Assembly: GCA_036677685.1 (NCBI GenBank)
Contig: JAVBWA010000012.1
Location: forward strand, 201,601-233,600
Reading direction: 5' to 3'
Length of the DNA stretch: 32,000 nt
Source: Syntrophomonas sp.
GTDB lineage: Bacteria > Bacillota > Syntrophomonadia > Syntrophomonadales > Syntrophomonadaceae
Below are positions 8,526-29,092 of this stretch, one piece after another. How positions within the stretch are numbered: position 1 is the first letter of the stretch; every line of letters starts with the position of its first letter. The notes beneath the pieces were generated by a model, which was given only the letters and a program-made list of their open reading frames with translations, had not been told where the DNA came from and did not search any database. The position numbers were made by a program, and so were the translations under genes.

Positions 8526-8576
8526 AAATCAACCCCCTCTCCTTTTGCTTTAAATGATAATGCGGGTATTGCTATT

Positions 8577-8762
8577 TCAGATGGAGCAATAACCTGCCCC
8601 CTTTGTATAGGCCATGCTTCCAATTCGCCAGCACCCTGTAATTTCAGTTTTCACTTCTTTAAAACCTTGGCCGGCCTGGACTTTGTACACACTCTGCCAA
8701 CCTCTTGACACTATTTGCGGCAGATTATGCAGAACCTGAGCCATTTGCACCCTGTCGGTCAT
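8577..8762 (-). CDS. Hypothetical 61-aa ORF between kinase and LuxR-family gene
   Basis: An ORF only, with no convincing RBS and no recognisable family. It ends 50 nt before the LuxR-family start. The C-terminal part contains two Cys (GCWRIGSMAYTKGAGYCSI). Confidence 0.2.
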   Translation of the reverse strand: MTDRVQMAQVLHNLPQIVSRGWQSVYKVQAGQGFKEVKTEITGCWRIGSMAYTKGAGYCSI

Positions 8763-8877
8763 TTCAAATGCACGATAATCAAAAACTTAAGCTGAATATA
8801 GCACGAGGCAAATTTAAAAAAATACCAATTGCATAATCGGCACTTGAAATGACACAAATGACATCGTGATTGCTTTT

Positions 8878-11806: not shown

Positions 11807-13153
<1,347 letters not shown>

Positions 13154-13272
13154 TTACTAATTTTATATTGGCGTTTTACTAGGGTATCAAGAAACAATTA
13201 TAAAAATTCTAATAGGGTCATGATTTGAATTTTTGTTTGCTTACTTCGAATGAAAAATCGATAAGAATAGAG

Positions 13273-14433
13273 TCAGTTTTGCGATAAGGACCAAATAAGC
13301 CTGGAGCGCTCAACCAGTCCGGGCAGGATATCCATCAATCTGTCAATATCCTCTTCGCTGTTGTCTTGGCCCAGGCTCAAGCGTAAAGCGCCAAGCGCGA
13401 CTTCGTTTTTCAGCCCCAGAGCTCTTAAAACATGGGAAGCTTGAAATGAATTGGTGCTGCAGGCGGCGGCGCTGGAAGCAGATATGCCTTCAGCATCAAG
13501 AAAATTGACTACCGCATCACCTTCCACTCCCGGGAACACGAAACTGGCGTGCCCGGGAAGGCGGTAGCCAGGTTGCCCGGTAAGATAGCTCTCGGGAATC
13601 TCGGCGAGCACTCGATTTACCAGTACTTTGCCGAGTTGTTCGAGATGTGCCGTTCGCTGCTGCATATTATGAGCAGCCATTTCAGCGGCTTTTCCCAAAC
13701 CAATAATACCCGGAAGATTTTCGGTTCCCGATCTTATTTTGCGTTCCTGCCCCCCGCCATAGGTTTGCGCCTCAAGCTTGATTCCCGACCGTACATACAG
13801 AACCCCGACCCCTTTGGGCCCATAGAATTTGTGAGCCGATAAGGACAATAAATCAACCTTTAGGGCCTTTACATCGATGGGGATACGACCCGCAGATTGA
13901 ACCGCATCAGTATGAAAAAGTATTTTATGCTCCCTGGCTATTTCGCCAATATCCGCCAAAGGCTGCAGCGTGCCTATTTCATTATTAGCGTGCATAATAC
14001 TGATCAGGGCAGTATCCTCGCGAATAACCTTTTTCAAGGTGTCCAGGTTTATGCTGCCATAAAAATCTACCGGCAGAACCGATACTTCAAAACCCATCCG
14101 GGCCAGCTGCTGAAATGAATTCAACACCGCATGATGTTCTATCGCAGAAGTAATAAGGTGTCGGCCCTGGTTTTGCCGGGCCAGGGCGGAGCCGATAATA
14201 GCCAGATTGTCCGCTTCAGTACCCCCGCTGGTAAACACAATTTCTTGCGGCTCGGCCCCGATGAGCGAAGCCACCTGTTTGCGGGCGGTTTCTAAAAGCA
14301 ATTTGGCTTCGCGTCCCTGACTGTGCAAACTGGATGGATTCCCCCACCCTTTAGTCATGGCTTCCATCATGGCTTCCGCGACCTCGGGGTCTACCGGGGT
14401 GGTCGCACTGTGATCCATATATATTCTTTTCAA
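13273..14433 (-). CDS. nifS: Cysteine desulfurase, NifS/IscS family (second paralog)
   Basis: MKRIYMDHSATTPVDP..., PLP Lys SAHKFYGPKG, active-site loop SSAAACSTNS. The TTG start is supported by N-terminal homology to the other paralog (MREIYLDHSATTPVDP) and by AAGGGG 8 nt upstream. Confidence 0.9.
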   Translation of the reverse strand: MKRIYMDHSATTPVDPEVAEAMMEAMTKGWGNPSSLHSQGREAKLLLETARKQVASLIGAEPQEIVFTSGGTEADNLAIIGSALARQNQGRHLITSAIEHHAVLNSFQQLARMGFEVSVLPVDFYGSINLDTLKKVIREDTALISIMHANNEIGTLQPLADIGEIAREHKILFHTDAVQSAGRIPIDVKALKVDLLSLSAHKFYGPKGVGVLYVRSGIKLEAQTYGGGQERKIRSGTENLPGIIGLGKAAEMAAHNMQQRTAHLEQLGKVLVNRVLAEIPESYLTGQPGYRLPGHASFVFPGVEGDAVVNFLDAEGISASSAAACSTNSFQASHVLRALGLKNEVALGALRLSLGQDNSEEDIDRLMDILPGLVERSRLIWSLSQN

Positions 14434-14502
14434 CTCTACCGCCCCTTGTATTTGATTCTAACAACTTGATAAAAATTCATAGCTTTATCACACTTTATCA
14501 AA

Positions 14503-14877
14503 TCAGGATTTTTCCCGGCGCGCAATACTGTCCTTAATAGCCTGGTGCATGGCATCAGCCGCCAGGTTGGAACAATGCATTTTCACCGGGGGTAGTCCGT
14601 CCAACGCTTCGGCAACGGCTCGGTTGGTGATGCGTTCGGCTTCTTCCAGGGTTTTGCCCTTCACCATTTCGGTAACCATGCTGCTGGTGGCAATGGCTGC
14701 GACACAGCCGAAAGTCTTGAATTTTATATCTTCAATGATATCATCCTTGACCTGAATCTCGATATGCATAATATCACCGCAGACCGGATTGCCTACTTCA
14801 CCTACTCCGTCCGCTCTATCCAGGGCTCCAACATTGCGAGGATTCATAAAATGATCCATAACTTTTTGTGAATACAT
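14503..14877 (-). CDS. nifU: Fe-S cluster assembly scaffold NifU/IscU
   Basis: MYSQKVMDHFMNPRNVG...GNPVCGD...KFKTFGCVAAIA...MHCSNLA carries the three conserved IscU cysteines. The ATG at 14877 shares one nt with the upstream nifS TGA (TGATG). Confidence 0.92.
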   Translation of the reverse strand: MYSQKVMDHFMNPRNVGALDRADGVGEVGNPVCGDIMHIEIQVKDDIIEDIKFKTFGCVAAIATSSMVTEMVKGKTLEEAERITNRAVAEALDGLPPVKMHCSNLAADAMHQAIKDSIARREKS

Positions 14878-16049
14878 CACTTGCTTCCCCCTTTGCTATA
14901 CAATGGCGACATTCTTCGCAGATTACCGATTATTTTGGGTAAAACCCCAAGTACAAAATCAACGTCCTCTTCGGTATTATCCTTTCCCAAAGTTAAGCGC
15001 AGCGATCCATGCGCTATCTCATGGGGAAGCCCGATAGCCAGCAGCACATGGGAAGGTTCCAATGAACCCGAGGTGCAGGCTGAGCCGCTGGATGCCATCA
15101 CCCCGTAACTATCCAGCATCAGCAGGATCGATTCCCCTTCCACGAATTCAAAGCATACGCTGACGCTTCCCGGGACCCGGTTTTGCAGATCGCCGGTGGT
15201 AATGGTATGCGGAATCTGCTCCAGGATTCCCTCGCGAAGTTTTCCGGCCAGTTTGTTTAAATGCCCGGCTATTTCGCTCATGCGGCTTTGGGCCAGTTCA
15301 GCGGCCTGTCCGAACCCTACAATACCGGGAATGTTTTCCGTACCGGCTCTCATTTTGTTCTCCTGGGAACCGCCGTGCAACAGGTTGCCAATTTTGGTGC
15401 CTTTTTTGATAAACAGACAGCCGACTCCTTTGGGACCGTACAGCTTATGGCTGGAGGCTGAAAGCATATCAATGCCCATGCTGTTAACATCGATGGCAAT
15501 CTTACCAGCCGTTTGCACCGCATCGGTATGAAAAGCCGCGCCAGCCTGGTGGGCTATGGCCGCCAATTCCGCAATGGGCTGAATGGTCCCTATTTCATTA
15601 TTAGCATGCATAATGGTAACCAGGGTAGTGTCAGGCTGCATAGCCTGTTTGAGAACCTCCGGCTCCACTGATCCCAAAGAATTGACCGGCAAAACGGTAA
15701 TATCAAAGCCATTTTTCCGGAGAAACTCACTGGTATCCAGTACGGCGTGATGTTCAACCGCCGATGTAATTAAATGCTTGCCTTTGTGGGTATTGCTGAG
15801 CATATAGGAAACAATGGCTTGATTATCGGCCTCGGTGCCGCCGCTGGTAAAAAATATTTCTCCGGCTTTGGCATTGATCAAGTCTGCAACTTGATCCCGG
15901 GCTTTTTCCAAGGCCTTTCTGGCCTCCCGTCCCTTGGCGTGCACGCTGGAAGGATTACCAAATATATCGTTATAGTAGGGTATCATGGCGTCAAAAACCT
16001 TCGGGTCAACCGGAGTGGTTGCGCTGTGATCCAAATATATTTCCCGCAT
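14877..16049 (-). CDS. nifS: Cysteine desulfurase, NifS/IscS family
   Basis: MREIYLDHSATTPVDPKVFDAM..., SSHKLYGPKG, SSGSACTSGSLEPSHVL. It starts 6 nt after the rrf2 stop, with RBS AGAGGTGA. Confidence 0.92.
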   Translation of the reverse strand: MREIYLDHSATTPVDPKVFDAMIPYYNDIFGNPSSVHAKGREARKALEKARDQVADLINAKAGEIFFTSGGTEADNQAIVSYMLSNTHKGKHLITSAVEHHAVLDTSEFLRKNGFDITVLPVNSLGSVEPEVLKQAMQPDTTLVTIMHANNEIGTIQPIAELAAIAHQAGAAFHTDAVQTAGKIAIDVNSMGIDMLSASSHKLYGPKGVGCLFIKKGTKIGNLLHGGSQENKMRAGTENIPGIVGFGQAAELAQSRMSEIAGHLNKLAGKLREGILEQIPHTITTGDLQNRVPGSVSVCFEFVEGESILLMLDSYGVMASSGSACTSGSLEPSHVLLAIGLPHEIAHGSLRLTLGKDNTEEDVDFVLGVLPKIIGNLRRMSPLYSKGGSK

Positions 16050-16055
16050 TGTTCT

Positions 16056-16523
16056 TCACCTCTTATCATTATTGTCTTGCTTAGATATCGTTACAGGGCT
16101 TTGCTCCCCTGCCGCAGATCCCTTTACTAAATCTTCCAGTGTATACGAATCCAAGACCTCGGAAATTGAGTCCCGCAAACGCGACCATACCTGCCGGGTC
16201 ACACAGTACTCGGCCCTGTTGCAGTCATCCGGGTTTAGCTCGCTCACGCATTCCACCGGGGCAATTGGCCCTTCAAGAGTGCGAACCACATCCCCAACCG
16301 TTATTTTGGCGGCATTTCGGCCCAGAATATAACCTCCCTGAGATCCGCGCACACTCTTAACCAGCCCGGCTTGTTTTAAAGGAGTCAGCAATTGTTCTAG
16401 GTACCTTCCAGATAAATTCTGACGGTCCGCAATAGTGTTAATTGCCACCGGCCCCATTTCCTGTTTTTGGGCAATATCAATCATAGCTCGCAGTCCATAT
16501 CTGCCTTTAGTTGACAACCTCAT
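16056..16523 (-). CDS. Rrf2-family transcriptional regulator (IscR/CymR-like)
   Basis: MRLSTKGRYGLRAMIDIA... winged-helix N-terminus. It has a cysteine set (C-x7-C-x5-C: PVECVSELNPDDCNRAEYC) compatible with Fe-S ligation. Confidence 0.9.
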   Translation of the reverse strand: MRLSTKGRYGLRAMIDIAQKQEMGPVAINTIADRQNLSGRYLEQLLTPLKQAGLVKSVRGSQGGYILGRNAAKITVGDVVRTLEGPIAPVECVSELNPDDCNRAEYCVTRQVWSRLRDSISEVLDSYTLEDLVKGSAAGEQSPVTISKQDNNDKR

Positions 16524-16572
16524 TCAATCATCCCTTCTCCCTGCCAAACTCAATACTATAGAACCCCCGCAG

Positions 16573-17493
16573 CTATGAAGCCAGGTAAATCATAGCCTCC
16601 AGAGCTCTGGCCGCTTTTTGCCTGATCTCCTCGGGAACCGTAACTATTGTTTGCTTTTGCTCAATGGAATACAGTATTTTATCCAGGGTTATACTTTTCA
16701 TATTGGGGCATATCAATTCTTCGGCAGCCAGGATCAGGTTGACTTCAGGACGTGCCTTAAGAATCGGATGGAAGATCCCCTTCTCAGTTCCTATTATAAA
16801 TTGTTTGTCTTCGGATTTGGCAACATAGTCCAAAATCCCGGCAGTACTGCCGGCATAATGAGCTTCGGCCAGAATCTCAGGCTTGCATTCCGGATGAACC
16901 AGAACTTGAGCCTTGGGAAATTGTTGCTTGAGATTTTTTATACTATCTAAAGCTACATGATCATGAATCGGGCAAAAGGAGGGGTAAGCTTCCAGGTTCC
17001 GGTCCAGTTTCTTGGCCACATTGGCGGCCAGGTTCTGATCAGGAACAAAGAACACTTCCCGGTCCGGCGGCAGTTTGCGTATTATTTTTTCCGCATTCGA
17101 TGATGTACAGCACACGTCACTTACCGCTTTAACCTCAGCGGGTGTATTCACATAGGTAACAACAATGCAATCGGGATGTGCTTCCCGGTACTTGACAACC
17201 TGTTCGGCAGTTATGCTGTTGGCCATGGGACAGGTAGCCGCCGGTTCCGGGGAAAGCACGGTGCGTCCCGGGCAAAGAATGGCGGCCGTTTCAGCCATAA
17301 AATCGACTCCCGCCACAAGAATTGTGGCGCTGCTCGAATTCCGGGCGGCCAAGGCCATCGCATAAGAGTCTCCTACAAAATCGGCAATATCCTGAATCTC
17401 ATTCCGTTGGTAATAATGGGCGATAATGTATATATCATCCCGTTTTTTTCTATCCAATATATCCAGGCTGATGGAGCTTTCACGCTGGTTCAT
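16573..17493 (-). CDS. nadA: Quinolinate synthase
   Basis: IIAHYYQRNEIQDIADFVGDSYAMA..., VAGVDFMAETAAIL, CPMA, CCTSSNA: typical NadA motifs. 306 aa. Confidence 0.92.
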   Translation of the reverse strand: MNQRESSISLDILDRKKRDDIYIIAHYYQRNEIQDIADFVGDSYAMALAARNSSSATILVAGVDFMAETAAILCPGRTVLSPEPAATCPMANSITAEQVVKYREAHPDCIVVTYVNTPAEVKAVSDVCCTSSNAEKIIRKLPPDREVFFVPDQNLAANVAKKLDRNLEAYPSFCPIHDHVALDSIKNLKQQFPKAQVLVHPECKPEILAEAHYAGSTAGILDYVAKSEDKQFIIGTEKGIFHPILKARPEVNLILAAEELICPNMKSITLDKILYSIEQKQTIVTVPEEIRQKAARALEAMIYLAS

Positions 17494-17593
17494 TGGTTCA
17501 CTTCCCTTGTTCGACTTTGACTAATTTAAAATAAATCTGGGATCAATATATCATATACCCTATAGTTTTACTAGTTGTATCTTAAAACATTTT

Positions 17594-18388
17594 TCAGTCC
17601 ATTACTATTTTTTCCGGATGAGTATAAATACTGAAGCACTTGCCACGGGCAAAACCTACCACGCAAAGCTCCAGTTCTTCAGCCAATTCCAAGGTCAACT
17701 CGGTCGGAGCGGCCCGTGACAAAATTACTGGTATGCTGCCGCGGGTGGCCTTGATTAAAATTTCCGAAGCCACCCGGCCGCTCAAAAGCAGGCACTTATT
17801 AGATATTGGCAGATCATTCAAAAACGCATATCCCAACACTTTATCAACAGCGTTGTGTCTTCCGATATCCTCATAATGAATAATTATTCCCGATTCGTCA
17901 GCCAGAGCCGCACTGTGCACCCCTCCGGTCAAGTGAAAAGATTTCGCCCTTTGCTCCAGTTCGGCCATCAAAACCTGAATTTGATCGAACGGAAGCTGCC
18001 AATCGGATTTTACCGGCTGCAGTTGGCGGGCATCATTAATAAAATAAAGGCCGGCGCGGCCTTTGCCGCAGCAACTGGCAACATGCCTCCGCAAAAAATT
18101 ATCGGTTTGCGCAATGGGTTCATAGGTCTCAATCCAAAGCAGGCCATCCTCTTCGCGAAGCCGGATGTCTTCGATCTGCGAGCGGGCCTGGAGCAGTCCT
18201 TCACTGAGCAGAAACCCAACAGTAAGCTCTTTTAACCCTCCCGGAGAGCAGATTAAGGTTGCCAGTTCATTATGATTGAGAAAAACCGTTAAAGGCTTTT
18301 CCGTGACAACCGATACCTCCTTTTTCTCAATACTTTTTCCATCGTACATTAGTATTTCCCGGTTTACATAAAGCGGCCAGCCTGACAA
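17594..18388 (-). CDS. fdhD: Formate dehydrogenase accessory sulfurtransferase FdhD
   Basis: GGVHSAAL and EDIGRHNAVDKVLG motifs. TTG start with GGAAGGAGG 8 nt upstream; an ATG 13 codons in is an alternative. Confidence 0.85.
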   Translation of the reverse strand: MSGWPLYVNREILMYDGKSIEKKEVSVVTEKPLTVFLNHNELATLICSPGGLKELTVGFLLSEGLLQARSQIEDIRLREEDGLLWIETYEPIAQTDNFLRRHVASCCGKGRAGLYFINDARQLQPVKSDWQLPFDQIQVLMAELEQRAKSFHLTGGVHSAALADESGIIIHYEDIGRHNAVDKVLGYAFLNDLPISNKCLLLSGRVASEILIKATRGSIPVILSRAAPTELTLELAEELELCVVGFARGKCFSIYTHPEKIVMD

Positions 18389-18413
18389 TTTATCGGCCTC
18401 CTTCCATCAAAAA

Positions 18414-19361
18414 TTACTCTATGTGCCATCTCCCGTCACCCGGATTGCACAACCTGGTCAAATCATATGGTGTTTCTTGATATACGTGGTAATTCAGCCA
18501 GTTGGCAAACATCAAATTCGCATGTCCGCGCCACCTGACCAACGGTGTTCCGGATGAATCATCATCCGGGTAATAATTAACGGGCACTGCTATATCCAGT
18601 CCTTTGGCAATATCACGTTCGTACTCCGCTTTCAGGGTAAGCGGATCGTATTCGGAATGCCCGGTAACAAAAATCTGACGGCAGTCCTGGTTGACCACAA
18701 TATAGACACCGGCCTCCTCGGATTCCGATAATATTTCCAGCCGCGCAACCTTTTCTATATCTCCTCTGCGTACTTCCGAATGGCGGGAGTGGGGAGCGTA
18801 AAACTCATCGTCAAATCCTCTGAGCAGCGGTACATTTTGTTTAAGTACCCGGTGGGTAAAAATGCCAAACATTTTTTCATCCAACGGATACTTGGGCACA
18901 CCGTAATGGTAGTACAGTCCTGCTTGAGCGGCCACACAGATATGCAGGGTAGCCCAAACATGCTTTTTGGTCCATTCCAAAACTTCCGACAGTTCTTCCC
19001 AGTAAGTCCATTCTTCATAATCAAGCTGTTCAACGGGTGCCCCGGTTATAATCATGCCGTCAAATTTCTGTTCTTTGATCTGAGAAAAAGTCGTGTAAAA
19101 ATTCTGCAAGTGCTCTTCCGCAGTATTTTTGGATTCATGGCTTTCCATATGCAGCAGGATTATCTCCACCTGCAGGGGAGTGTTGGACAGAAGTCTTAAT
19201 AATTGAGTTTCGGTTACGATCTTTTGCGGCATCAAATTCAAAATGACAATTCGCAAAGGGCGTATATCCTGATGCACAGCCCTTTTCTCTTTCATTACAA
19301 AGATATTCTCGCCCTGGAGTATAGCACTGGCCGGGAGATTATCCGGTATAATAATAGGCAT
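18414..19361 (-). CDS. metA: Homoserine O-acyltransferase (MetA family)
   Basis: [23 protein letters not shown]...[23 protein letters not shown]...; the catalytic Cys lies in [10 protein letters not shown]. Full length, 315 aa. Confidence 0.92.
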
Positions 19362-19482
19362 ATTCTAATACTCCCCTCAAAAATTTGTTTGTTTATCTAT
19401 CTTTATCAATGCATATAAATAATATTTATATCTGGTTCGCATTCATTTCTCGTCCATTGATAAGATACCTTTCATCCCATAT

Positions 19483-19611
19483 TTAAAAATTCCAATTGAC
19501 TATCCTCTTTATCGTGCCTCCCCCGATCACCCGGTCACCCTGGTAAAAAACCGCCGCCTGCCCGGGTGTCACCGCTCTTTGAGGATAATCAAAATCAACC
19601 CTGGCCTCATC
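19483..19611 (-). pseudogene. C-terminal 42-codon remnant of tRNA 2-thiouridylase MnmA
   Basis: The minus-strand frame reads [42 protein letters not shown], which is the conserved MnmA C-terminus (PQRAxTPGQxxVFY...GGG.I). An in-frame TAG lies immediately upstream, so nothing else of the gene is left. Confidence 0.65.
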
Positions 19612-19661
19612 CTAAAAAGAATTTTAGTATCAAGTGAATTATCTATACTATTTTTATAGGC

Positions 19662-19690
19662 ATTATAGGGTATTTAGAACTGAATTTCAA
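19662..19690 (-). promoter_or_regulatory. Sigma-70-type promoter for metA (TTGAAA-17-TATAAT)
   Basis: Minus strand: TTGAAA (19690-19685), a 17-nt spacer, TATAAT (19667-19662). This is about 300 nt upstream of the metA ATG. The TAGGGTAT motif overlaps the -10. Confidence 0.55.
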
Positions 19691-19749
19691 TCATTTTGGA
19701 GATAAAGGCAAAATTGCTGGCCCTATCCCCTACTAGAGTCACAAATATT

Positions 19750-19944
19750 TTATCCTTGCGGCTCTTGGAACAATACAGTTGAAAGATATCTTTCCCCGGT
19801 ATCGGGCAGCAATACCACGATATTTTTTCCTGCATGCTCCGGCCGTTGGGCCAGTTGAGTGGCGGCATAAACAGCGGCTCCCGAAGAGATCCCCACCAAT
19901 AAACCTTCCGTTTGAGAGAGCAGCCGGAAAGTATCAAAAGCCTC
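19750..19944 (-). pseudogene. C-terminal 64-codon remnant of a second cysteine synthase (CysK/CysM paralog)
   Basis: The minus-strand frame reads [64 protein letters not shown]. It aligns residue-for-residue with the end of the intact CysK ([61 protein letters not shown]). A TAA lies 2 codons upstream. By eye the DNA matches at roughly two-thirds of positions, so this is a decayed paralog and not a recent duplication. Confidence 0.75.
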
Positions 19945-20123
19945 GCTTTAAAGCATTAACATTGAAAAGGCGAGGCGTCTGGATAATAAAATAAGGCAAT
20001 TTTGATGAACTGTTCTTCTGTCAAAGCTATTTGTAGCCCAATGAATCTGGTAGCCAGCCTCTTTTGCCGATAAAATCCTTATAAATTTTAATTTGATTCG
20101 CCTGGAGAAATCCCTGTCAAAGG

Positions 20124-21053
20124 CTACTGCTGAAACAATTCAGTGGAAAGGTATCTTTCTCCCGTATCAGGCAGTAATACAACAATGGTTTTCCCATGAT
20201 TTTCGGGCTTTTTGGCTATTTGTGAAGCCGCATAGGCGGCTGCTCCTGATGATATGCCCACCAGAAGCCCTTCAGTCCTGGCCAGTAGCCTCGCAGTCTG
20301 AAATGCATCTTCGTTTTTTACTTTAAATACTTCATCTAAAATTGACCGATTCAAGACTTCCGGGATGAAATTTGCGCCTATGCCCTCAATCTTGTGCGGC
20401 CCTGCCTTCCCACCTGAAAGCAATGGTGAATCATAGGGTTCTACCGCAATTATTTTTACCTCCGGCTTTTTCGCTTTAAGAACCTCTCCTATGCCGGTGA
20501 TGGTCCCACCCGTTCCTACCCCGGCCACAAATATGTCTACCTGGCCTGCAGTATCCCGCCAGATTTCCTGAGCCGTGGTTTCCCTATGGGCTGCCGGGTT
20601 GGCAGGATTTTTAAATTGCTGAGGTATAAAGGAATTGGGTGTACTGGCAGCCAGTTCATCCGCAACCCGCAGGGCGCCCGCCATCCCTTCCGTTCCCGGA
20701 GTCAAAACTAGTTCCGCGCCTAGAGCCTTCAGCAGGTTGCGACGTTCCAGGCTAAAGGTTTCCGGCATGGTTAGGATTAGCCGGTAACCTTTTGCTGCGG
20801 CTACAAAGGCCAGCGCAATACCCGTATTCCCACTGGTAGGCTCGATTATAACCGAGTCTTTATTGATCAGGCCTTTTGCTTCCGCATCTTTGATCATGGC
20901 ATAGCCAATCCGGTCCTTGGCACTGCCGGCCGGGTTAAAGTATTCAAGTTTGCCCAGCAACCTTGCTTTCACCTGCTGATTTAAAGCAAAATTGGACAAT
21001 TCCAACATTGGAGTATTCCCGATAAGTTCAGTAAGATTTGATACAATTCCCAC
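20124..21053 (-). CDS. cysK: Cysteine synthase A (O-acetylserine sulfhydrylase)
   Basis: IGNTPMLEL..., PLP-Lys region [32 protein letters not shown] start with GGAGGG 6 nt upstream. Confidence 0.93.
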
Positions 21054-21109
21054 TTAAATCCCTCCGTTTTCTTATTTATAAACGTCTATCCTATTTCATC
21101 CTCCTGAAT

Positions 21110-21166
21110 TCAAAGCCAGTCGAGCATAGCGCGCAATCCATAACGGCCTTTCGTGGACATCTTCAT
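21110..21166 (-). pseudogene. 18-codon N-terminal remnant of an Rrf2-family regulator upstream of cysK
   Basis: The minus strand reads ATGAAGATGTCCACGAAAGGCCGTTATGGATTGCGCGCTATGCTCGACTGGCTTTGA, giving MKMSTKGRYGLRAMLDWL*. This matches the invariant Rrf2 N-terminus (compare MRLSTKGRYGLRAMIDIA at 16523). The rest of the gene is absent. Confidence 0.55.
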
Positions 21167-21320
21167 AAACCCGGTATCTCCAAATAGTTTTCCTATATGA
21201 ATACTAGTATATTATGACCACAAATGCAACATTATTACTGTAACAGCAGCCTTGTCATAGCTTTAATTATATTTTATAATTCCTATATAAATACTGTATA
21301 TATGAAAGGTTTTTGATTTG

Positions 21321-21770
21321 ATGATGAACGAAAAGGGGCATGTTCTGGCTGTTAATATCTCCGAAAAAAGAGGGGAAAAGAAGCATAATATCAATGAAGC
21401 TTACATTAAAGCCGACTGGGGTATTGAAGTTGATGCCCATAGCGGTGAATGGCACCGCCAGGTCAGCTTGCTGTCGCTTTCCAGTGTGGAAAAGATGCGT
21501 GCATTGGGAGCAGTCATTGATTACGGCGATTTCGCTGAAAATCTTACCGTTGAAGGAATTGATGTGGCTGCCCTTCCGCTGGGCACCCGCCTGCAAGTTG
21601 GAGAAGTCCGGATGGAAGTAACCCAAATCGGCAAAGAATGCCACAATAAAGCCTGTGCTATCAAAAAGCAAGTTGGCACCTGTGTTATGCCTATCGAAGG
21701 CATATTTACCCGGATTCTCAGTTCGGGCTGGGTAAGAGTAGGCGATACAATCGAAGTAATAGAACAATAG
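21321..21770 (+). CDS. MOSC-domain protein (small YiiM-like molybdenum-cofactor-sulfurase C-terminal domain)
   Basis: GHVLAVNISEKRGEKKHNINEAYIKADWGIEVDAHSG...RQVSLLS...GDFAENLTVEGID...LPLGTRLQVGEVRMEVTQIGKECH is a MOSC beta-barrel pattern. The 178-aa minus-strand ORF across it is antisense. Confidence 0.85.
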   Translation: MMNEKGHVLAVNISEKRGEKKHNINEAYIKADWGIEVDAHSGEWHRQVSLLSLSSVEKMRALGAVIDYGDFAENLTVEGIDVAALPLGTRLQVGEVRMEVTQIGKECHNKACAIKKQVGTCVMPIEGIFTRILSSGWVRVGDTIEVIEQ

Positions 21771-22125: not shown

Positions 22126-22458
22126 TTATAAAGTTATGACCTGATCTATGCCGGCACCGCCCAAAACAGCGTAGAGATTGGGGAAACAGCCGATAGCGGC
22201 ACCATCCACCAATTTGTCGTCAATTCCCCTTTCAATGGTACACATATCACACCCCATTAAAACGGTACCGTACTTTTCGTGGATCTCCTGGAGTCTATCC
22301 CCGGTGCTGCTGCCTTTGGTCAACAGGAAGGTGTTGTCAAAGAAAAACATCATCCCGGCCACTTCAACTCCGTGACGTTCTTCCAGCATTTGCGGAATAA
22401 TCATTTTATCCAGTATCCTTTGCGCATTATTTGTGGAGAAAATATAGGCAACTCTCAT
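22126..22458 (-). CDS. DsrE/DsrF-like sulfur-relay family protein (last gene of the Cys-pair operon)
   Basis: MRVAYIFSTNNAQRILDKMIIPQMLEERHGVEVAGMMFFFDNTFLL...LMGCDMCTIERGI has DsrE-like topology and a C-x2-C-x3-RG segment. I chose the ATG at 22458 (AAGGAGAGG upstream) over the track's longer ORF, which would overlap the ATPase gene. Confidence 0.75.
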   Translation of the reverse strand: MRVAYIFSTNNAQRILDKMIIPQMLEERHGVEVAGMMFFFDNTFLLTKGSSTGDRLQEIHEKYGTVLMGCDMCTIERGIDDKLVDGAAIGCFPNLYAVLGGAGIDQVITL

Positions 22459-22480
22459 TTCAACCTCTCCTTTATTTTTA

Positions 22481-23374
22481 TTATTGGGCAACTCTGCCTT
22501 TATCAACTTTGGTATATCTGTTGTTCATCCGGTTATAAGCATCGGTAAAACTGGCCTGCCTGTCATAGTCAGCAACCTTTTCGCTAAAATCATCTGACAG
22601 CTCAAAGTCAACAACTTTTTCCTGAAAAGCCTGACGTACTAGCTTTGTCAGTTCCGCAACGTAGGCTTTAAAGCCTTCACTTTGCCTGTCCCGCGGACGG
22701 TCAAGATCAATATAAACGTCTTTTACTATCTGGCCCTTATTCCCGGACATGACTATAACCCGGTCACTCAGATAAACCGATTCATTTACATCATGGGTGA
22801 CCATAACCACAGTAGTTTTGGCTCCCTCTACCAAAGCTGCCAGTTCTTCCTGTAAAAGCTCCCGCATTTGAAAATCTATAGCTCCCAGCGGTTCATCCAA
22901 CAGCAGAATTTCCGGGCGGCTGGCTAAAGCCCTGACTACCGCTACTCTCTGCTGCATACCCCCGGAAAGCTGTACGGGATACTTGTTTTCGCTGCCTCGT
23001 AAATGTGATATATCCAACAGCTCCTGCAGGCGATCTATTTGTTCCTTATGAGCGAACTTTTTGACACGCAGGGAATATAGAATGTTGTCTTTCACTGTCA
23101 TCCAGGGGAAAAGAGCATAATTTTGAAAAACAAAACCCCGGTCAGGCCCGGGTTCTACTACCTTATTGCCGGCCAAAATTATTTCTCCCGCATCGGGATG
23201 CAAAAAGCCGCCCAATATGGTCAACAGGGTAGTCTTACCGCACCCGGATGGTCCCAGAAGCGAAACATACTGACCTCTTTCTACGGTAAAGGACATGTTT
23301 TCCAGGACTATGTGCGCGGCTTTTTTCTTCTGGGTAAATGTTTTGGTTATATCTTTAACTTCCAGCAAAGCCAT
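22481..23374 (-). CDS. ABC transporter ATP-binding protein (NitT/TauT = SsuB/TauB-like)
   Basis: Walker A GPSGCGKTT, FQNYALFPWMTV, signature LSGGMQQRVAVVRAL, Walker B LLLDEP. It has a roughly 60-aa C-terminal extension. Its start overlaps the permease gene by 20 nt. Confidence 0.92.
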   Translation of the reverse strand: MALLEVKDITKTFTQKKKAAHIVLENMSFTVERGQYVSLLGPSGCGKTTLLTILGGFLHPDAGEIILAGNKVVEPGPDRGFVFQNYALFPWMTVKDNILYSLRVKKFAHKEQIDRLQELLDISHLRGSENKYPVQLSGGMQQRVAVVRALASRPEILLLDEPLGAIDFQMRELLQEELAALVEGAKTTVVMVTHDVNESVYLSDRVIVMSGNKGQIVKDVYIDLDRPRDRQSEGFKAYVAELTKLVRQAFQEKVVDFELSDDFSEKVADYDRQASFTDAYNRMNNRYTKVDKGRVAQ

Positions 23375-24188
23375 CTTTAAATCTCCATGAAGTTAGTTTT
23401 TCCTCTATGGTTAAAAAGCCTTTATCAATAACAAACCCTACTAATCCCGACATAAACATTAAAGCGTAAAGCTGCGCCGTCTCCAGCCGCACCTGGGCTT
23501 CCACCATCAAAAAACCGAATCCGGCACTGGTAGCAATAAACTCCGCACAAATAACTGACATCCACCCGGCACCCATAGCCAAACGGCAACCGGTCAATAT
23601 GCTGGGCAAAGCCCCCGGCACCACAATATCGCGAATAATATGAGGCAAAGAAGCCCCCATACTGCGAGCCGCATTATAATAGTTGGGATCAATCCCGTAT
23701 ACTCCGGCAATAGTGTTGATAGCAAGAGGAAAAACCGCACTCATGGCAATCAGAAAAACAGTGGGACCGTCTCCCAGGCCAAACCAAATAATGGACAAGG
23801 GCACCCATGCCATAATAGGAACCTGACGCACCGAATTTATTACCGGGGAAAGCGCCTGCATGGCCGTCTGGGAATAACCCATTAAAAGTCCTAAGGGGAT
23901 GCCGATGACAAATGCATATACGAAACCTATAAACACTCTTTTTAAAGTCAAAGCCAAATTTGACATAATTACAGGGTCCACCCATGCTGTAAAAAATTCT
24001 TTGGCTGTGTCTTTAAAATAAGGCAACAGTAACGTATTTTGAATGCAATTGGCAGCAAAATGCCAGGCAAATACCAGGATAATTACAATAATCATGGTAT
24101 AACAGGTGCCTCGATACTTATCTAAAATATCGCCCGGAGTTAATTTGGTATTTCTATCGGCTGGAATTGTATTCCCATTTCTCTCCAT
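23355..24188 (-). CDS. ABC transporter permease (SsuC/TauC-like, BPD_transp_1)
   Basis: Six hydrophobic segments and an EAA-like loop (YNAARSMGASLPHIIRDIVVPGALPSI). RBS TGAGGT before the ATG at 24188, which overlaps the upstream gene by 49 nt. Confidence 0.9.
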   Translation of the reverse strand: MERNGNTIPADRNTKLTPGDILDKYRGTCYTMIIVIILVFAWHFAANCIQNTLLLPYFKDTAKEFFTAWVDPVIMSNLALTLKRVFIGFVYAFVIGIPLGLLMGYSQTAMQALSPVINSVRQVPIMAWVPLSIIWFGLGDGPTVFLIAMSAVFPLAINTIAGVYGIDPNYYNAARSMGASLPHIIRDIVVPGALPSILTGCRLAMGAGWMSVICAEFIATSAGFGFLMVEAQVRLETAQLYALMFMSGLVGFVIDKGFLTIEEKLTSWRFKDGFAGS

Positions 24189-24934
24189 ATTTTTACCTCA
24201 TTACTGCTATTCTCTATGGATAAATTTTTTTTCAGTTCTTTCATAAGTATCCCTGTGGTATTTATTTCACCGACCGCCTGGTTATAGGCCTTTATAAAGC
24301 TTTCCAACTCAGTGCTGCCAAGCAAATTTTCATGCACAACCAGCACAGAGCTTGGATACTCGGAAAGCAAAGGTAAACGATAACCACTAATTTTTAATGC
24401 TCCCAAAATATCCAGGACTATTCCTTCTACTGCATCTCTTTCCAGGGCATACGGTAAACCTGCAGGAAGCATAGGCTTCATTACAATACTATTGTCTAAA
24501 TTGGACCAAACCAATTTTTTCTGAATTTCCCGCAGATTCATGTAGCCTACAGTTCGCGGAATAGTATCCTGATTCGTGACTAGAACATTGGCGTTTACCA
24601 CTACCGGACCTAAAACCTGATAAGGCTGACCACTGGCAATCAGCTTATCGGCACTGTCTGGGCAAAGCACTGCCAGATCAAAATTGCCCGCGGACAGTGC
24701 CAGCTCAGTTTGGCTGTTACAGCAATCCTGCAGTTGTTGATAACTCATATCGACAACCTCCAGGGCTGAACTTCCCTCTCCCGCCAGGTATTTGACAAGC
24801 AAACCGGCAGCGTCATCATTACACGCAATCCGTAATCCACTCGGTTCTACGCGATCAAGCATCATGTTCAATCCTAAAAAGATACAAACGATAAGGATCA
24901 GGCCTGCCGGCAGCAGGATTCTTTTACGGTTCAT
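24140..24934 (-). CDS. Membrane-anchored periplasmic-binding-protein-like paralog (unknown specificity)
   Basis: N-terminal anchor MNRKRILLPAGLILIVCIFLGL. The segments LRIACNDDAAG...LQDCCNSQTELALSAGNFDLAVL parallel INMGYYNCDHMTAA...EAMSAGKMDVGYAG of the neighbouring SsuA/NMT1-type binding protein. ATG at 24934 with AGAAGGA upstream. Confidence 0.65.
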   Translation of the reverse strand: MNRKRILLPAGLILIVCIFLGLNMMLDRVEPSGLRIACNDDAAGLLVKYLAGEGSSALEVVDMSYQQLQDCCNSQTELALSAGNFDLAVLCPDSADKLIASGQPYQVLGPVVVNANVLVTNQDTIPRTVGYMNLREIQKKLVWSNLDNSIVMKPMLPAGLPYALERDAVEGIVLDILGALKISGYRLPLLSEYPSSVLVVHENLLGSTELESFIKAYNQAVGEINTTGILMKELKKNLSIENSSNEVKIWREMGIQFQPIEIPN

Positions 24935-24964
24935 CAACAGTCCTTCTGTGCAATTATGCAGCTA

Positions 24965-26143
24965 TTAACTTTTGGCCGTAATGTTATCAACTTCCATAGC
25001 CTTGGTTTTCCAATCTTCAAAACTCATCCCCAGCGGGAATACCGGATCTACTTCTTCTTTTATGAAGGTTTGAAAATCTTTGGCGCCACAAGCGTCAAAA
25101 TAGGAAGTGTCAACATAGTCTTCGACATCGACAGTATTAACATCATTTTGTACGCCATACTTCTGCATTACTTCCAACTGGTTCTTCAGTTCATCCATTT
25201 TCAGATCCCAGGATATCGTACGTCCTTCTTCATTGGTCTTCTTCCAAATGGTCATTAAAGCAACTTCAAGAGGAACATTGTAGTTTTTGGCAAATATTTC
25301 TGCAGCTTTGTACGGGTGATTATACATGTATTGAACCGACAAGGTATGTGCCAATAAAACCCTTTTGGCTAAATCCGGATGGGCTTGGGCGAAATTGGTA
25401 TGCATGGCTACCTTGCAGCAGGTACCTTGTTTACCATCCCGCACGGTATTTTGCCTTATCACCACCCAGCCGGTATCCTCGTATTCGGCCATGGAGCCCC
25501 ACGGATCACAACATATATAAGCATCCAGCTTACCGGCTTTAAGCGCAAAATATTCATCCTGATCGCTCATATTGAAGTTCTGGTACTTGGTAATATCAGC
25601 CGGAATGTCTAATTGGTCTGCCCATTCCGCCCAGTTGATACTATTGGTCTCAGGATCTGTTCCAAAGGATACTTTCTTGCCTACTAAATCTGCCGCGGTT
25701 TTAATCTCCTTGCTGGCTATCAAATATTCCGATCCCCCGGTATGGTTTTGGGCGGCAATGAACAGAGGTGTGCCTTTAGGAACTGCCCGCAGGGTGGTGG
25801 TCCAACCCGCGTAGCCGACATCCATTTTCCCGGCTGACATAGCTTCAGGTACATTACCATTGCCGGTTAAATTAATTTTCAGCCCCAATGCTTCATAAAT
25901 TCCGGCATCCTTGCCGATACAAGCAGCGGTCATATGATCACAGTTATAATAGCCCATATTAATGGTATAATTTGCGTCTTCATCACTTAATGGTTGAAGA
26001 TTATAAGTTTCTTTCAATTCCTCGGCCAGGCTTTTCTCCGTTTTCTGGGCTTGCTGGGAGGTTTGTTTGGCACTGCAGCCGCACAAAGCAAGTAACCCCA
26101 TCATTAAAATAGCTATGAGAATATACAACTTTGCATTTTTCAT
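24965..26143 (-). CDS. ABC substrate-binding lipoprotein, NMT1/SsuA/TauA-like
   Basis: Lipobox LLALCGCS. NMT1-like core (AMSAGKMDVGYAGWTTTLRAV, FIAAQNHTGGSEYLIA, GKKVSFG). Two vicinal Cys pairs: YICCDPWG and GTCCKVAMH. Confidence 0.9.
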   Translation of the reverse strand: MKNAKLYILIAILMMGLLALCGCSAKQTSQQAQKTEKSLAEELKETYNLQPLSDEDANYTINMGYYNCDHMTAACIGKDAGIYEALGLKINLTGNGNVPEAMSAGKMDVGYAGWTTTLRAVPKGTPLFIAAQNHTGGSEYLIASKEIKTAADLVGKKVSFGTDPETNSINWAEWADQLDIPADITKYQNFNMSDQDEYFALKAGKLDAYICCDPWGSMAEYEDTGWVVIRQNTVRDGKQGTCCKVAMHTNFAQAHPDLAKRVLLAHTLSVQYMYNHPYKAAEIFAKNYNVPLEVALMTIWKKTNEEGRTISWDLKMDELKNQLEVMQKYGVQNDVNTVDVEDYVDTSYFDACGAKDFQTFIKEEVDPVFPLGMSFEDWKTKAMEVDNITAKS

Positions 26144-26178
26144 GCTACATACTCCTCCAATCCCTTTTACTTAAAAAA

Positions 26179-26640
26179 CTAGCAGCAATCTTCCATGCCT
26201 TCCCCGAAAAGATTTACGAACTTTCCTTTTTCTAAACGATAAATAGCGTAACCCACATTCACCCCCTTGGAGCCGGATATTATCAATTCAACCGGGGCCT
26301 TATCATCAATATCCCGCCATTCGATGCGGTAATTTTCTGCCGGCGCCGGTGTCGGCTCAGAAATAACAACTGTCCCGGCTTCTTCCCATATTGCTATCAT
26401 TTTGTTGGCGTCTGCACTATCCTTATAAATAACAATTAAATCTTCCTCCCCATCATTATTAATATCATTAACTCCGGTAAGAAGAGGCTGCTTGTCTTTA
26501 TAAGCATTTAAATAGTATTCAAATAGCTTGTGGCTGGTTTCTATTGTTTTAACGCTATCTTCTTTCCGGTCTTTACCGCCACAGCCTGTAATGCACAGCA
26601 GAGCCAGCAGAAGCAAAATCAATCTTTTCTTCTTAGGCAT
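26179..26640 (-). CDS. Small lipoprotein ending in Cys-Cys-COOH
   Basis: MPKKKRLILLLLALLCITGCGG lipobox. I chose the ATG at 26640 (AGAGGG upstream), which overlaps the upstream permease stop by 8 nt. There is an FG-GAP/EF-hand-like DINNDGEEDL segment. The last residues are GEGMEDCC followed by TAG. Confidence 0.75.
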   Translation of the reverse strand: MPKKKRLILLLLALLCITGCGGKDRKEDSVKTIETSHKLFEYYLNAYKDKQPLLTGVNDINNDGEEDLIVIYKDSADANKMIAIWEEAGTVVISEPTPAPAENYRIEWRDIDDKAPVELIISGSKGVNVGYAIYRLEKGKFVNLFGEGMEDCC

Positions 26641-27748
26641 TTTTAACCCTCTGACCCAATTCGGCCAACCTTTCGCGGCATATTGGCCACCAAGCCGTAA
26701 TACCCATGGCAATGACGATCAGCGAACAAGCATATTCCAACCAGACCGGAACAGCCAGGGACATCTTATTGGCCAAATCCATACTATTCCGGGCATTGCT
26801 TAAATCAAAAACCGGAGTAAAGCCCGGCATTAAAAGACTATTGGTAATATAGCCAACTATCACACTGAGGACTACCACCGTCACCGTATATATAACTACC
26901 GTTCTTTTACCAATAAGTTTGTAAATACTTATTAATTCAGGCAAATTGGTCGCTACCCCCGAAAGCAGAAATGTAACAGCTACTCCCGGTGCTGCTCCTG
27001 CAGCAATAAGTGCTGCAATAAAAGGAATATGTCCAACTGCACAAACGTACATAACCGCACTTAAGATTACAATTCCAAACAAAGAAATAAAAGCAGGACT
27101 GCTTAAATAATCCTGTATAAAGGATACGGGAATAATCGTAAGCAAAAGTGCCGCAAATAATATCCCCACCAGAACATAGCGGCTTACCTGCAAGCCCAGA
27201 CTGCGTACGCTCCAATCCAGTCCGCTGCAGATCCTTTTATGCCAGGGAGTTTTAACCGCAGTAAGAGTATTTATTGCTGATTCCGCAGGTGAATTTATCA
27301 TAGCTTCTGCCATAGCAGCCGCCATTGGTGATACCAGCTCTTCCTTTCCCCATCTGTTGCCTATAACTCCAATAATGATCGGGAGTATAAAACCGGTAAT
27401 AACATAGATAATCGTCAATTCCGGTCCCAGAAGAGCAATAGCGAGTAAAACAGCCGCAGGATTTATTATCGGTGTAGCAACCAAAAATGCCAACGTAGGT
27501 CCTAAATAAGCACCCGAGTAATAAAGGCTCAAAGCTAAGGGCACCACTCCACAACTGCAAATAGGCAAAAGCATTCCCGATATGGTAGCTTTCGCCAGCG
27601 ATGATAATTTGGTATTACCCAGCGATTTTTGCAAAAATTCCGGGCGCAGCACTATATGTAAAAATCCGCAAAGGATAAAACTAAATACCAGCCAAAATGA
27701 ACTTACATTTAGTAATTGCCAGAAGAAAAGCAGGAATTCTTTAATCAT
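26633..27748 (-). CDS. Polytopic permease of the ArsP/DUF318 (PF03773-like) family
   Basis: About 10 hydrophobic helices, with the family-typical LPICSCGVVPLALSL and VCAVGHIPFIAALIAAG motifs. The ATG at 27748 overlaps the stop of the upstream thioredoxin-fold gene (AATGATTAA). Confidence 0.85.
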   Translation of the reverse strand: MIKEFLLFFWQLLNVSSFWLVFSFILCGFLHIVLRPEFLQKSLGNTKLSSLAKATISGMLLPICSCGVVPLALSLYYSGAYLGPTLAFLVATPIINPAAVLLAIALLGPELTIIYVITGFILPIIIGVIGNRWGKEELVSPMAAAMAEAMINSPAESAINTLTAVKTPWHKRICSGLDWSVRSLGLQVSRYVLVGILFAALLLTIIPVSFIQDYLSSPAFISLFGIVILSAVMYVCAVGHIPFIAALIAAGAAPGVAVTFLLSGVATNLPELISIYKLIGKRTVVIYTVTVVVLSVIVGYITNSLLMPGFTPVFDLSNARNSMDLANKMSLAVPVWLEYACSLIVIAMGITAWWPICRERLAELGQRVKNA

Positions 27749-28004
27749 TGGCTTTATCCAGAGCAACCTTAACTGCCCCTTCAATTACCCTCCTGCTCAA
27801 TTCATCAAAACGTTCTTTTTCATTAATAATCAAAGTTCCCCGGTTAACCGGCCCATATTTCGGCAGATAATCAAAATCCTTGCCCATGTAGTATATTTTC
27901 AAGTCTATTTGTTCGGGATGTCTAACGGCTAAATCCCTTAAAACATCTCCATACCCGTCACAACAAGAGCAAGTATTAATGAATTCCACCTTGACCTTTT
28001 CCAC
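27741..28004 (-). CDS. Small thioredoxin-fold protein (redox-active-disulfide-protein-2-like) with CSCC motif
   Basis: VEKVKVEFINTCSCCDGYGDVLRDLAVRHPEQIDLKIYYMG...GPVNRGTLIINEK. Its size, its beta-alpha-beta start with Cys directly after strand 1, and its pairing with an ArsP-type permease are typical of that family. GTG start with GAGGGAGAG upstream. Confidence 0.75.
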   Translation of the reverse strand: MEKVKVEFINTCSCCDGYGDVLRDLAVRHPEQIDLKIYYMGKDFDYLPKYGPVNRGTLIINEKERFDELSRRVIEGAVKVALDKAND

Positions 28005-28070
28005 TCTCTTCTCTCCCTCTTTCTTATTTATTTCTATACTTAATATTACTTTTTTTTATCTATTATTTAA

Positions 28071-28100
28071 ATTATAATCGAATTATGTAAATAGCGTCAA
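28071..28100 (-). promoter_or_regulatory. Candidate promoter of the eight-gene operon (TTGACG-18-TATAAT)
   Basis: Minus strand: TTGACG (28100-28095), an 18-nt spacer, TATAAT (28076-28071). This is about 65 nt upstream of the GTG at 28004. Confidence 0.45.
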
Positions 28101-28111
28101 TTGATTAACGT

Positions 28112-28134
28112 AATCGATATTATAGATATCGATT
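28112..28134. promoter_or_regulatory. Perfect 9-5-9 palindrome AATCGATAT-tatag-ATATCGATT in the divergent control region
   Basis: Read directly. It lies 12 bp upstream of the minus-strand -35. Its right arm overlaps a plus-strand -35 candidate (TTGATT 28133-28138, 16-nt spacer, TATAAT 28155-28160). Confidence 0.5.
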
Positions 28135-28324: not shown

Positions 28325-28546
28325 ATGCGTGAAAAAGTTGAAGCTGTACTTGGTAACATTCGTCCGGCACTGCAGCGTGATGGTGGTGATGTGGAACTGG
28401 TTGAGGTCAATGATCAGGGAGTTGTTAAAGTTCGTTTGAAAGGAGCCTGCGGCGGCTGTCCAATGGCCTCAATGACTCTTAAAAACGGTATTGAAAGAGT
28501 TCTTAGAGAATCGATTCCAGAGATTAAGGAAGTTGTATCCGTTTAA
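28325..28546 (+). CDS. nfu: NifU C-terminal-domain (Nfu-type) Fe-S carrier protein
   Basis: MREKVEAVLGNIRPALQRDGGDVELVEV...VKVRLKGACGGCPMASMTLKNGIERVL is a canonical Nfu domain with CxxC. Confidence 0.9.
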   Translation: MREKVEAVLGNIRPALQRDGGDVELVEVNDQGVVKVRLKGACGGCPMASMTLKNGIERVLRESIPEIKEVVSV

Positions 28547-28633: not shown

Positions 28634-29092
28634 TCAAGTCTTTGTTCCGCTGCGAATGTCTCCCCCTGAGGATTGGATTTTTATTTCCGGCTCCATAAGA
28701 ACTTCGCTTTTTATAGATTGAGCTATAGTGGAATACTCAAAGGCCAACTGCAGCGCTCTTTTTACAAGCGTCTCAGACCCGCCCCTTACTGTAATTTTCG
28801 GCTTGAGCACAATCTTTTTAAACCATGAAGTTTTATCTAAAAACTCTTCTACATTGCCTTCAATCGTACATTGGTAACTTAGCAGTTCCAATTTAAAACG
28901 CTCTGCTGCCCAGATGACCATCATGTGAACACAGGTGTTGACTGCCATCATGAAGGCATCCTCCGGGGTCATCATCTGGGAATAGCCAAAAAGACTTGGA
29001 GGGGCTGAAAATTCCATGTCAATACCATTTTCGCAAAAACTATGCCCGAGGTGCCCGCCCTTCCAAATCACATTATTGGTATAGGTAGACAT
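28634..29092 (-). CDS. OsmC/Ohr-fold protein
   Basis: MTPEDAFMMAVNTCVHMMVIWAAERFKLEL...YQCTIEGNVE matches the OsmC core helix/strand pattern. The usual second catalytic Cys near the C-terminus (CPVS-like) is replaced by YSTIAQSI. Confidence 0.7.
   Translation of the reverse strand: MSTYTNNVIWKGGHLGHSFCENGIDMEFSAPPSLFGYSQMMTPEDAFMMAVNTCVHMMVIWAAERFKLELLSYQCTIEGNVEEFLDKTSWFKKIVLKPKITVRGGSETLVKRALQLAFEYSTIAQSIKSEVLMEPEIKIQSSGGDIRSGTKT

Follow-up and report, generated by a model that had tools for sequence, protein, structure and literature searches.

What brings pairs of adjacent cysteines into several neighbouring proteins of one bacterial operon is the question raised by a stretch of 32,000 nucleotides from Syntrophomonas sp. 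(assembly GCA_036677685.1, contig JAVBWA010000012.1, positions 201,601 to 233,600), here called the window. The original prediction, made from the letters of the DNA, had noticed five Cys-Cys (CC) pairs in four proteins encoded next to each other on the minus strand, and had proposed that they serve a relay passing a thiophilic ligand from binding protein to transporter. Assigned by protein family, the region 22126-28004 is a Selenocysteine-Assisted Organometallic (SAO) locus with the gene order saoT-E-C-X-B-P-A-D. Because Haft & Gwadz (bioRxiv 10.1101/2022.07.06.499078), who coined the name SAO, had already published the repeated CC/CU theme, in which U denotes selenocysteine (Sec), as the hallmark of the system, the recurrence seen here is an independent rediscovery of a feature that is already known, curated and used in RefSeq annotation.

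Eight contiguous minus-strand genes, tightly packed and in part overlapping, fill this region, and the products of all eight pass NCBIfam equivalog cut-offs. The first, saoT (27741..28004), encodes a "CxCC_doxin" thioredoxin-like (seleno)protein of 87 residues (NF040730, 126.5 bits against a cut-off of 65), and is followed by saoE (26633..27784), the gene of an efflux transporter (NF040736, 498.9 bits against 325; Pfam ArsP_1, E = 9.8e-55) which probably begins at the ATG of residue 13 (27748). Then come saoC (26179..26640), for a 153-residue lipoprotein of the Cys-Cys-COOH (seleno)protein family (NF040734, 168.7 bits against 80), saoX (24965..26143), for a substrate-binding lipoprotein of the SsuA/NMT1 type (NF040735, 506.4 bits against 300), and saoB (24140..24937), for a second binding protein, membrane-anchored or secreted (NF040727 "SBP_SaoB_CU", 248.3 bits against 140). 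The ATP-binding cassette (ABC) permease and ATPase are encoded by saoP (23355..24188; NF040733 "ABC_perm_U", 378.1 bits against 295) and saoA (22481..23374; NF040729, 379.8 bits against 360), and the series ends with saoD (22126..22458), for a DsrE-related protein of 110 residues (NF040732, 181 bits against 169). Eight of the nine Sao families are co-located on one strand, each above its cut-off, the ninth being SaoL. Pfam sees generic parts only, namely an ArsP_1 permease, an NMT1-like binding protein, an ABC permease and an ABC ATPase, while the NCBIfam models NF040727-NF040736 originate from the work of Haft & Gwadz (J Bacteriol 2023, as cited in PMC13188914) and carry the wording "(seleno)protein" in their names; Cys forms are recognised members of the system.

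The nearest database proteins, from a Syntrophomonas metagenome-assembled genome (MAG), are 96-100% identical and bear the NCBI labels SaoX and SaoC; a 153-residue product identical to SaoC is already on record. At 84-98% identity, the nearest proteins and loci belong to MAGs of Syntrophomonas, Syntrophomonadaceae and Desulfosporosinus, relatives that suggest an anaerobic host. Housekeeping genes surround the locus, which is chromosomal, and the 32 kb contain no genes of mobile elements. As judged from its family matches, it is one more Cys-only, lyase-less member of the SAO group, from a Syntrophomonas-like and presumably anaerobic host.

Translation of the genes and mapping of every Cys codon showed the motif coordinates of the original prediction to be exact. 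SaoT carries TCSCCDG with C12 (27969-27971), C14 (27963-27965) and C15 (27960-27962), and SaoC ends in ...EDCC followed by TAG, its CC codons lying at 26182-26187 and its lipobox Cys, C20, at 26581-26583. SaoX contains C68 (25940-25942), C211/C212 in YICCDPWG (25508-25513) and C242/C243 in GTCCKVAM (25415-25420), and SaoB contains C72/C73 in LQDCCNSQ (24719-24724) as well as C92 (24662-24664). Two further motifs named at that time, ICSCG in the permease and GCDMC in the DsrE-like protein, are likewise present: the former holds the CSC motif of SaoE (C76/C78, 27551-27559), and the latter is the CxxC motif of SaoD (22240-22251), a protein with a third Cys at 22186-22188. One site had been missed, C214 of SaoP, a single Cys codon (23547-23549) that is the commonest Sec site in relatives. 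It had also been said that the Cys codons of the pairs are TGT or TGC and that no gene of the operon ends in or is interrupted by TGA. Both statements hold: the motif codons are all TGT or TGC, and each of the eight sao genes runs uninterrupted to a TAA or TAG stop, with TGA stops used by none of them and by six of the 18 other scored genes of the window.

When residues were shuffled within each of the eight proteins, thereby preserving the Cys content of each, a mean of 0.61 CC pairs was expected against the five observed (P = 2e-4 for at least five pairs), and the probability that at least four of the eight proteins would bear a pair was 1e-3. The 18 other window proteins (6551 residues) hold two CC pairs, one in NadA (16573-17493, ...DVCCTSS...) and one in FdhD (17594-18388, ...VASCCGKG...), and their Cys content is 1.0%, compared with 1.8% in the Sao proteins. 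The earlier view that so many pairs are unlikely to arise by chance is thus upheld, and two of its details had to be amended. Three of the four CC-bearing proteins, all four of which had been described as secreted or membrane-facing, are extracytoplasmic; the remaining one, SaoT, has no signal peptide and is therefore presumably cytoplasmic. SaoB, for its part, had been taken for a paralog of SaoX, a relationship that we reject on a pairwise BLASTP E value of 0.93; both are still binding proteins.

How far the motifs are conserved was read from 80 related loci, collected through SaoX homologs with 10-kb flanks, in which TGA was read as U and each window protein was aligned to the ortholog of each locus (80 orthologs of SaoX, 75 of SaoB, 74 of SaoP, 70 of SaoC, 69 of SaoE, 68 of SaoT and 55 of SaoD). 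The motif Cys are essentially invariant, as would be expected if the pairs are functional and common to the neighbouring proteins, and this invariance spans Bacillota, Synergistota, Spirochaetota and Desulfobacterota. The terminal CC of SaoC is found in 70/70 orthologs and all three Cys of SaoD in 55/55; in SaoE, C76, C78 and C248 are each retained in 69/69 and C353 in 68/69, while SaoX keeps C68 in 79/80, C212 in 80/80, C242 in 79/80 and C243 in 80/80, the same four being invariant among 120 database homologs. C211, the first Cys of YICC, is facultative (52/80 loci and 65/120 database homologs), which matches the "about half" given for this position by Haft & Gwadz. Both C72 and C92 of SaoB are present in 75/75 orthologs, and C15 of SaoT in 68/68.

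Certain columns alternate between Cys and Sec. An in-frame TGA takes the place of C73 in 10 of the 75 SaoB orthologs (Cys in the other 65), of C12 in six SaoT orthologs (Cys in 62) and of C214 in 34 of the 74 SaoP orthologs (Cys in 40), while C14 of SaoT is Cys in 40 orthologs, U in eight, Thr in ten and Ser in eight. Homology runs 55-189 residues beyond the TGA codons (55-59 residues in the Sec forms of SaoP), and short hairpins with G-containing loops lie downstream of them. A global folding-energy test for selenocysteine insertion elements, in which the minimum free energy of the 60 nt after the codon was compared between Sec and Cys orthologs, gave no separation (p = 0.076 for SaoP, and a difference in the wrong direction for SaoB and SaoT); because this comparison failed to discriminate, the Sec call rests on the in-frame homology, together with the local hairpins. 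As had been foreseen, then, the locus of the window is the all-Cys form of a system whose other members employ Sec, and it shares this condition with 33 of the 66 related loci that have a complete core. For comparison, Haft & Gwadz reported Sec in 85% of SaoP, 65% of SaoT and 60% of SaoB. Two SaoT homologs in our alignment (P0223 and P0225 of alignment A2) show Trp at the first motif position ("NTWxGC"), likely a TGA (Sec) codon translated by the gene caller under another genetic code.

Structural comparison places several of these cysteines where a ligand would be held. The SaoX profile matches TauA, the solved taurine-binding protein (E = 1.6e-6), and yeast THI5 (E = 3e-5), all being of one fold family (NMT1 fold) in which the cleft-lining positions correspond. 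With the numbering of the TauA PDB chain brought into register with that of the paper (an offset of 21, checked on Glu106 and Thr132), C212 falls on Trp176, C243/K244 on Leu204/Asp205 and E139 on the hinge residue Glu106, all of which line or contact the ligand in the TauA structure (PMC6906117), while C242/C243 align to the Cys-rich GCCCFC stretch of THI5. On this alignment, the CC pairs of SaoX are predicted to map to the ligand cleft and not to the core. Membership of SaoX in the SsuA/TauA families of sulfonate-binding proteins was rejected, since it scores 98.7 against a cut-off of 163.5 with TIGR01728 and at most 30 bits with TauA models whose cut-offs are at least 304, and since the polar and aromatic contacts of TauA (Trp176, Leu204/Asp205) are replaced by Cys. 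In the AlphaFold model of Clostridioides difficile SaoX presented by Haft & Gwadz, four conserved Cys converge in the cleft; in their other models, the conserved Cys of SaoB likewise converge in a binding cleft, and the Sec residues of a SaoP dimer meet at the gate.

The AlphaFold model of SaoT (predicted local distance difference test score, pLDDT, of 92) has C12 just before a helix comprising residues 13-28 and C14/C15 in the first turn of that helix, which is the canonical active site (CxxC) of thioredoxins, and the top 50 PDB matches found with Foldseek are classical thioredoxins. An extra Cys, as in CxCC, occurs in <0.5% of the CXXC motifs of thioredoxin-like proteins (Haft & Gwadz). The thioredoxin fold with three clustered Cys had suggested an ArsD-like metalloid chaperone, a candidate that was rejected as no Pfam match was obtained at E <= 10 and ArsD is not among the top 50 Foldseek matches. 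SaoC is modelled (pLDDT 85) as an all-beta domain (residues 51-147) after the lipoprotein signal, with a short C-terminal helix that bears the CC; it has no significant PDB neighbour and resembles propeller blades and FG-GAP repeats only weakly (E >= 0.07), its Pfam match to FG-GAP_3 (E = 0.011) falling short of the cut-off. SaoD gives a weak match to Pfam DsrE (E = 0.012).

What the motifs may do is considered here on the footing of what is shown, namely family membership, the conservation of the Cys, the columns in which Cys and Sec interchange and the fold of SaoT, that of a thioredoxin. The reading we lean towards, and regard as probable without being secure, is that the Cys motifs of the SAO locus contact the cargo in a relay that works by thiolate/selenolate ligand exchange, the cargo being soft and thiophilic: a heavy metal, an organometal or a metalloid. 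On the outer side of the membrane, the lipoproteins SaoX, with a pocket of four to five Cys, and SaoB, with three, would capture the cargo and hand it to a SaoP2-SaoA2 ABC importer powered by SaoA, at whose gate the two C214 copies of the SaoP dimer would meet. In the cytoplasm, SaoT (CxCC) and SaoD (CxxC plus one Cys) would hold the cargo or the freed metal, SaoL, where present, would cleave the cargo, and the ArsP-family permease SaoE (CSC) would export the metal, after which the flexible C-terminal CC of SaoC possibly receives exported cargo for another round. What we infer in this relay is which way the cargo travels, how it is handed on and what it is. The relay of the original prediction finds indirect backing in the alignment of the SaoX pairs to the ligand-lining residues of TauA, and the kinship of SaoE, a Pfam ArsP_1 member with a likeness to the SO_0444 Cu/Zn efflux family, also speaks for it; the same interpretation has been published for SAO by Haft & Gwadz.

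Several points weigh against such a relay for metals or organometals. Cleavage of an organometal is the chief hint of an organometallic cargo, and the 32 kb encode no enzyme for it; in a review of 2026 the roles of SAO are still given as unknown; and both the DsrE-related SaoD and ABC parts of the sulfonate/taurine/nitrate group fit a sulfur or selenium cargo equally well. The last of these points leads to a serious rival, which we nevertheless judge unlikely, namely that, instead of a metal, the system moves a chalcogen species such as sulfane sulfur, polysulfide, selenide or a selenotrisulfide, carried on Cys or Sec as persulfide or selenotrisulfide adducts, in a relay for the acquisition and trafficking of sulfur or selenium. 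DsrE/Tus proteins carry persulfides, and SaoD is related to them both by NF040732 and by its weak Pfam match; SaoX, SaoP and SaoA fall in the sulfonate/taurine ABC group, SaoT has a thioredoxin fold, and the operon has cysK, two nifS genes, iscU, iscR, fdhD, a MOSC gene, metY and an Nfu-like gene as window neighbours. That neighbourhood is, however, not conserved, given that MOSC, Nfu-like, FdhD, IscU and IscR proteins are never encoded beside the 80 related loci and CysK or NifS almost never. Weighing down the chalcogen further, half of the related loci carry a MerB-like carbon-metal lyase, the relatives of SaoE are exporters of metals and organoarsenicals, and an importer of selenium that itself requires Sec in most species would be circular. 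SelD and selenium-cofactor genes do form the second tier of co-occurring genes in the published phylogenetic profiling, but SaoD homologs outside SAO adjoin metal importers (both from Haft & Gwadz).

The pairs might, alternatively, have no ligand at all. If they were structural or redox elements, forming vicinal disulfides or a chain of thiol-disulfide exchange, the position of the SaoT motif at the redox-active site of a thioredoxin fold and the extracytoplasmic location of three of the four CC-bearing proteins, where disulfides can form, would be well accounted for. Vicinal disulfides are nevertheless strained and rare, the hosts of SAO are strict anaerobes, and the third Cys of the SaoT motif is atypical for thioredoxin-like proteins; moreover, the SaoX pairs lie in the ligand cleft by alignment, the CC of SaoC stands at a free C-terminus, and the switching of the same columns to Sec suits catalysis or the binding of a soft ligand better than it suits structure, all of which makes this explanation improbable. 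Hardly conceivable is a compositional coincidence in Cys-rich proteins, for which one could cite the higher Cys content of the Sao proteins and the pairs in the unrelated NadA and FdhD, since the excess persists under shuffling that preserves the Cys content and the pairs are invariant across phyla, a conservation that refutes coincidence. Structural disulfides and chance are thus effectively excluded by the interchange of Cys and Sec and by invariance across phyla.

The missing lyase deserves attention of its own. No SaoL was found in the 32-kb window by tblastn with four SaoL sequences, one of them validated by NF040728 and Pfam MerB (best E 0.04), and SaoL could be encoded elsewhere in the same genome. 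This MerB-like lyase with a CU motif is present in 40 of the 80 related loci; it is also missing nearby in the closest ones (L001-L009, L012-L014, L017, L018 and L020), present in L010 and L011, and the closest loci that lack it come from Syntrophomonadaceae, Desulfosporosinus, Thermacetogenium and Synergistota. Its absence leaves the SAO membership standing, because 7-9 of the 52 loci of Haft & Gwadz, who treat SaoL as dispensable, and 18 of the 33 all-Cys loci collected here also lack it nearby. Loci with and without Sec did not differ in whether they carry SaoL (Fisher p = 0.32, 66 complete-core loci). Given that all Sec-prone sites are Cys in the clade of the window and that SaoL is missing nearby, one may entertain, tentatively and at rather long odds, that the SAO core needs neither selenium nor carbon-metal cleavage. 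That core, made up of the Cys-lined SaoX and SaoB, a Cys-gated ABC importer, SaoT, SaoD, SaoE and the CC-tailed SaoC, would then be an import and re-export loop for an inorganic thiophilic species, metalloid or chalcogen, and not an organometallic pathway. Annotation of the large open reading frames of the window with Pfam and NCBIfam found no gene for an 8Fe-9S double-cubane protein, whose gene is adjacent to SAO in almost half of the genomes surveyed by Haft & Gwadz and hence frequent without being universal; no genes of the Sec machinery were found in the window by Pfam and NCBIfam annotation.

The locus can also be compared with systems already described. With the SAO locus of C. difficile (CD2361-CD2369), an anaerobe as the host of the window probably is, it shares the eight families, each scoring above its equivalog cut-off, and the set of motifs: SaoT has CxCC, SaoE CSC, SaoC a C-terminal CC, SaoX CC, SaoB CC/CU, SaoP a Cys/Sec at the gate and SaoD CxxC with one further Cys. 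Compared with published SAO loci, the one described here differs in having Cys at every Sec-prone position, no SaoL in the 32 kb, no adjacent double-cubane gene, and saoD at the 3' end after saoA. Other arrangements are seen among the related loci: the order X-B-P-A-T-E-C-D occurs in seven of them (L029-L033, L039 and L041, from Oribacterium, Oscillospiraceae and Lachnospiraceae MAGs), some of which possess an additional saoE or an additional saoT with CxUC, two others (L051 and L062) have two saoX copies, and L072 has an additional saoX-like copy on the opposite strand.

The MerB/MerT/MerP systems of mercury resistance offer a parallel: in them, as in the proposed SAO relay, ligand exchange moves a thiophilic metal from one Cys pair to another, and related SAO loci include the MerB homolog SaoL. 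The window, in contrast, is without MerA, MerR, MerT, MerP and MerB, import in SAO would rely on an ABC transporter with two binding proteins, and the context is not mobile or plasmid-like. On the export side, SaoE shares with the organoarsenical efflux permease ArsP and the SO_0444 Cu/Zn efflux family the ArsP_1 domain and a conserved CSC motif, and scores 198 bits with the SO_0444 model; this is, however, below the cut-off of 300, and ars genes are missing from the window. According to Haft & Gwadz, SaoE is always accompanied by the Sao ABC importer.

About 70 nt upstream of saoT lies a promoter-like site on the minus strand, TTGACG-18 nt-TATAAT (28071..28100), which, as a consensus match only, agrees at 11 of 12 positions and is the best in the region; a similar TTGAC...TATAAT pair precedes saoT in four related loci (L001, L003, L006 and L009). 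Just upstream of this site, a perfect 9-nt inverted repeat (AATCGATAT-N5-ATATCGATT, 28112-28134) was considered as an operator and rejected, as it is not conserved even in the closest locus, L001. Between the promoter-like site and saoT, an AT-rich leader motif was recognised by eye in the window (about 28030-28050) and in L001, L002, L006 and L009, for example as AGTAATATTAAGTATA, AGTAATATAATGTATAAC and AGTAATACAATATATAAC; an operator and a second -10 region are both conceivable roles for it. Rfam models at gathering thresholds detected no RNA regulators in the 32 kb, neither a riboswitch nor a T-box despite the Met and Cys genes.

The run of sulfur, iron-sulfur and cofactor genes next to the SAO operon (11807-21770) comprises metY, nifS, iscU, a second nifS, a gene for an Rrf2/IscR regulator, nadA, fdhD, metA, cysK and a divergent gene for a MOSC-domain protein. 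This sulfur and iron-sulfur neighbourhood was rejected as a clue to function and is treated as coincidental, because it does not recur beside the 80 related loci. On the other side, a 73-residue protein with an Nfu/NifU C-terminal domain (28325-28546, plus strand) is encoded divergently from saoT across a 320-bp AT-rich spacer and is followed by a gene for an OsmC-like protein (28634-29092, minus strand); neither recurs in related loci. More distant minus-strand genes encode a 1478-residue cell-surface protein (1226-5662) with SLH domains, a cadherin-like beta-sandwich, SbsC C-terminal domains and a FecR-like segment, in a part of the window with a G+C fraction of about 0.51 as against 0.43 in the SAO region, and, at 6036-10823, a MalT-like LuxR regulator of 829 residues adjoining a two-component pair formed by a GHKL/SpoOB-type histidine kinase and a LytTR response regulator.

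The SAO system ranks among the densest known clusters of selenoprotein families, provided the first ABC-transporter subunits reported with Sec, and was detected by Haft & Gwadz in 98% of the C. difficile assemblies that they examined. The locus of the window adds no new principle to this picture; it documents a compact, all-Cys, lyase-less SAO in syntrophic Bacillota. A reading made from sequence alone had arrived at the hallmark already in print and was right in foreseeing relatives that contain Sec. SAO itself is an attractive experimental problem, and since an all-Cys version such as this one needs no Sec machinery for its expression, common laboratory hosts could produce it, so that assays of binding and transport would come within reach.

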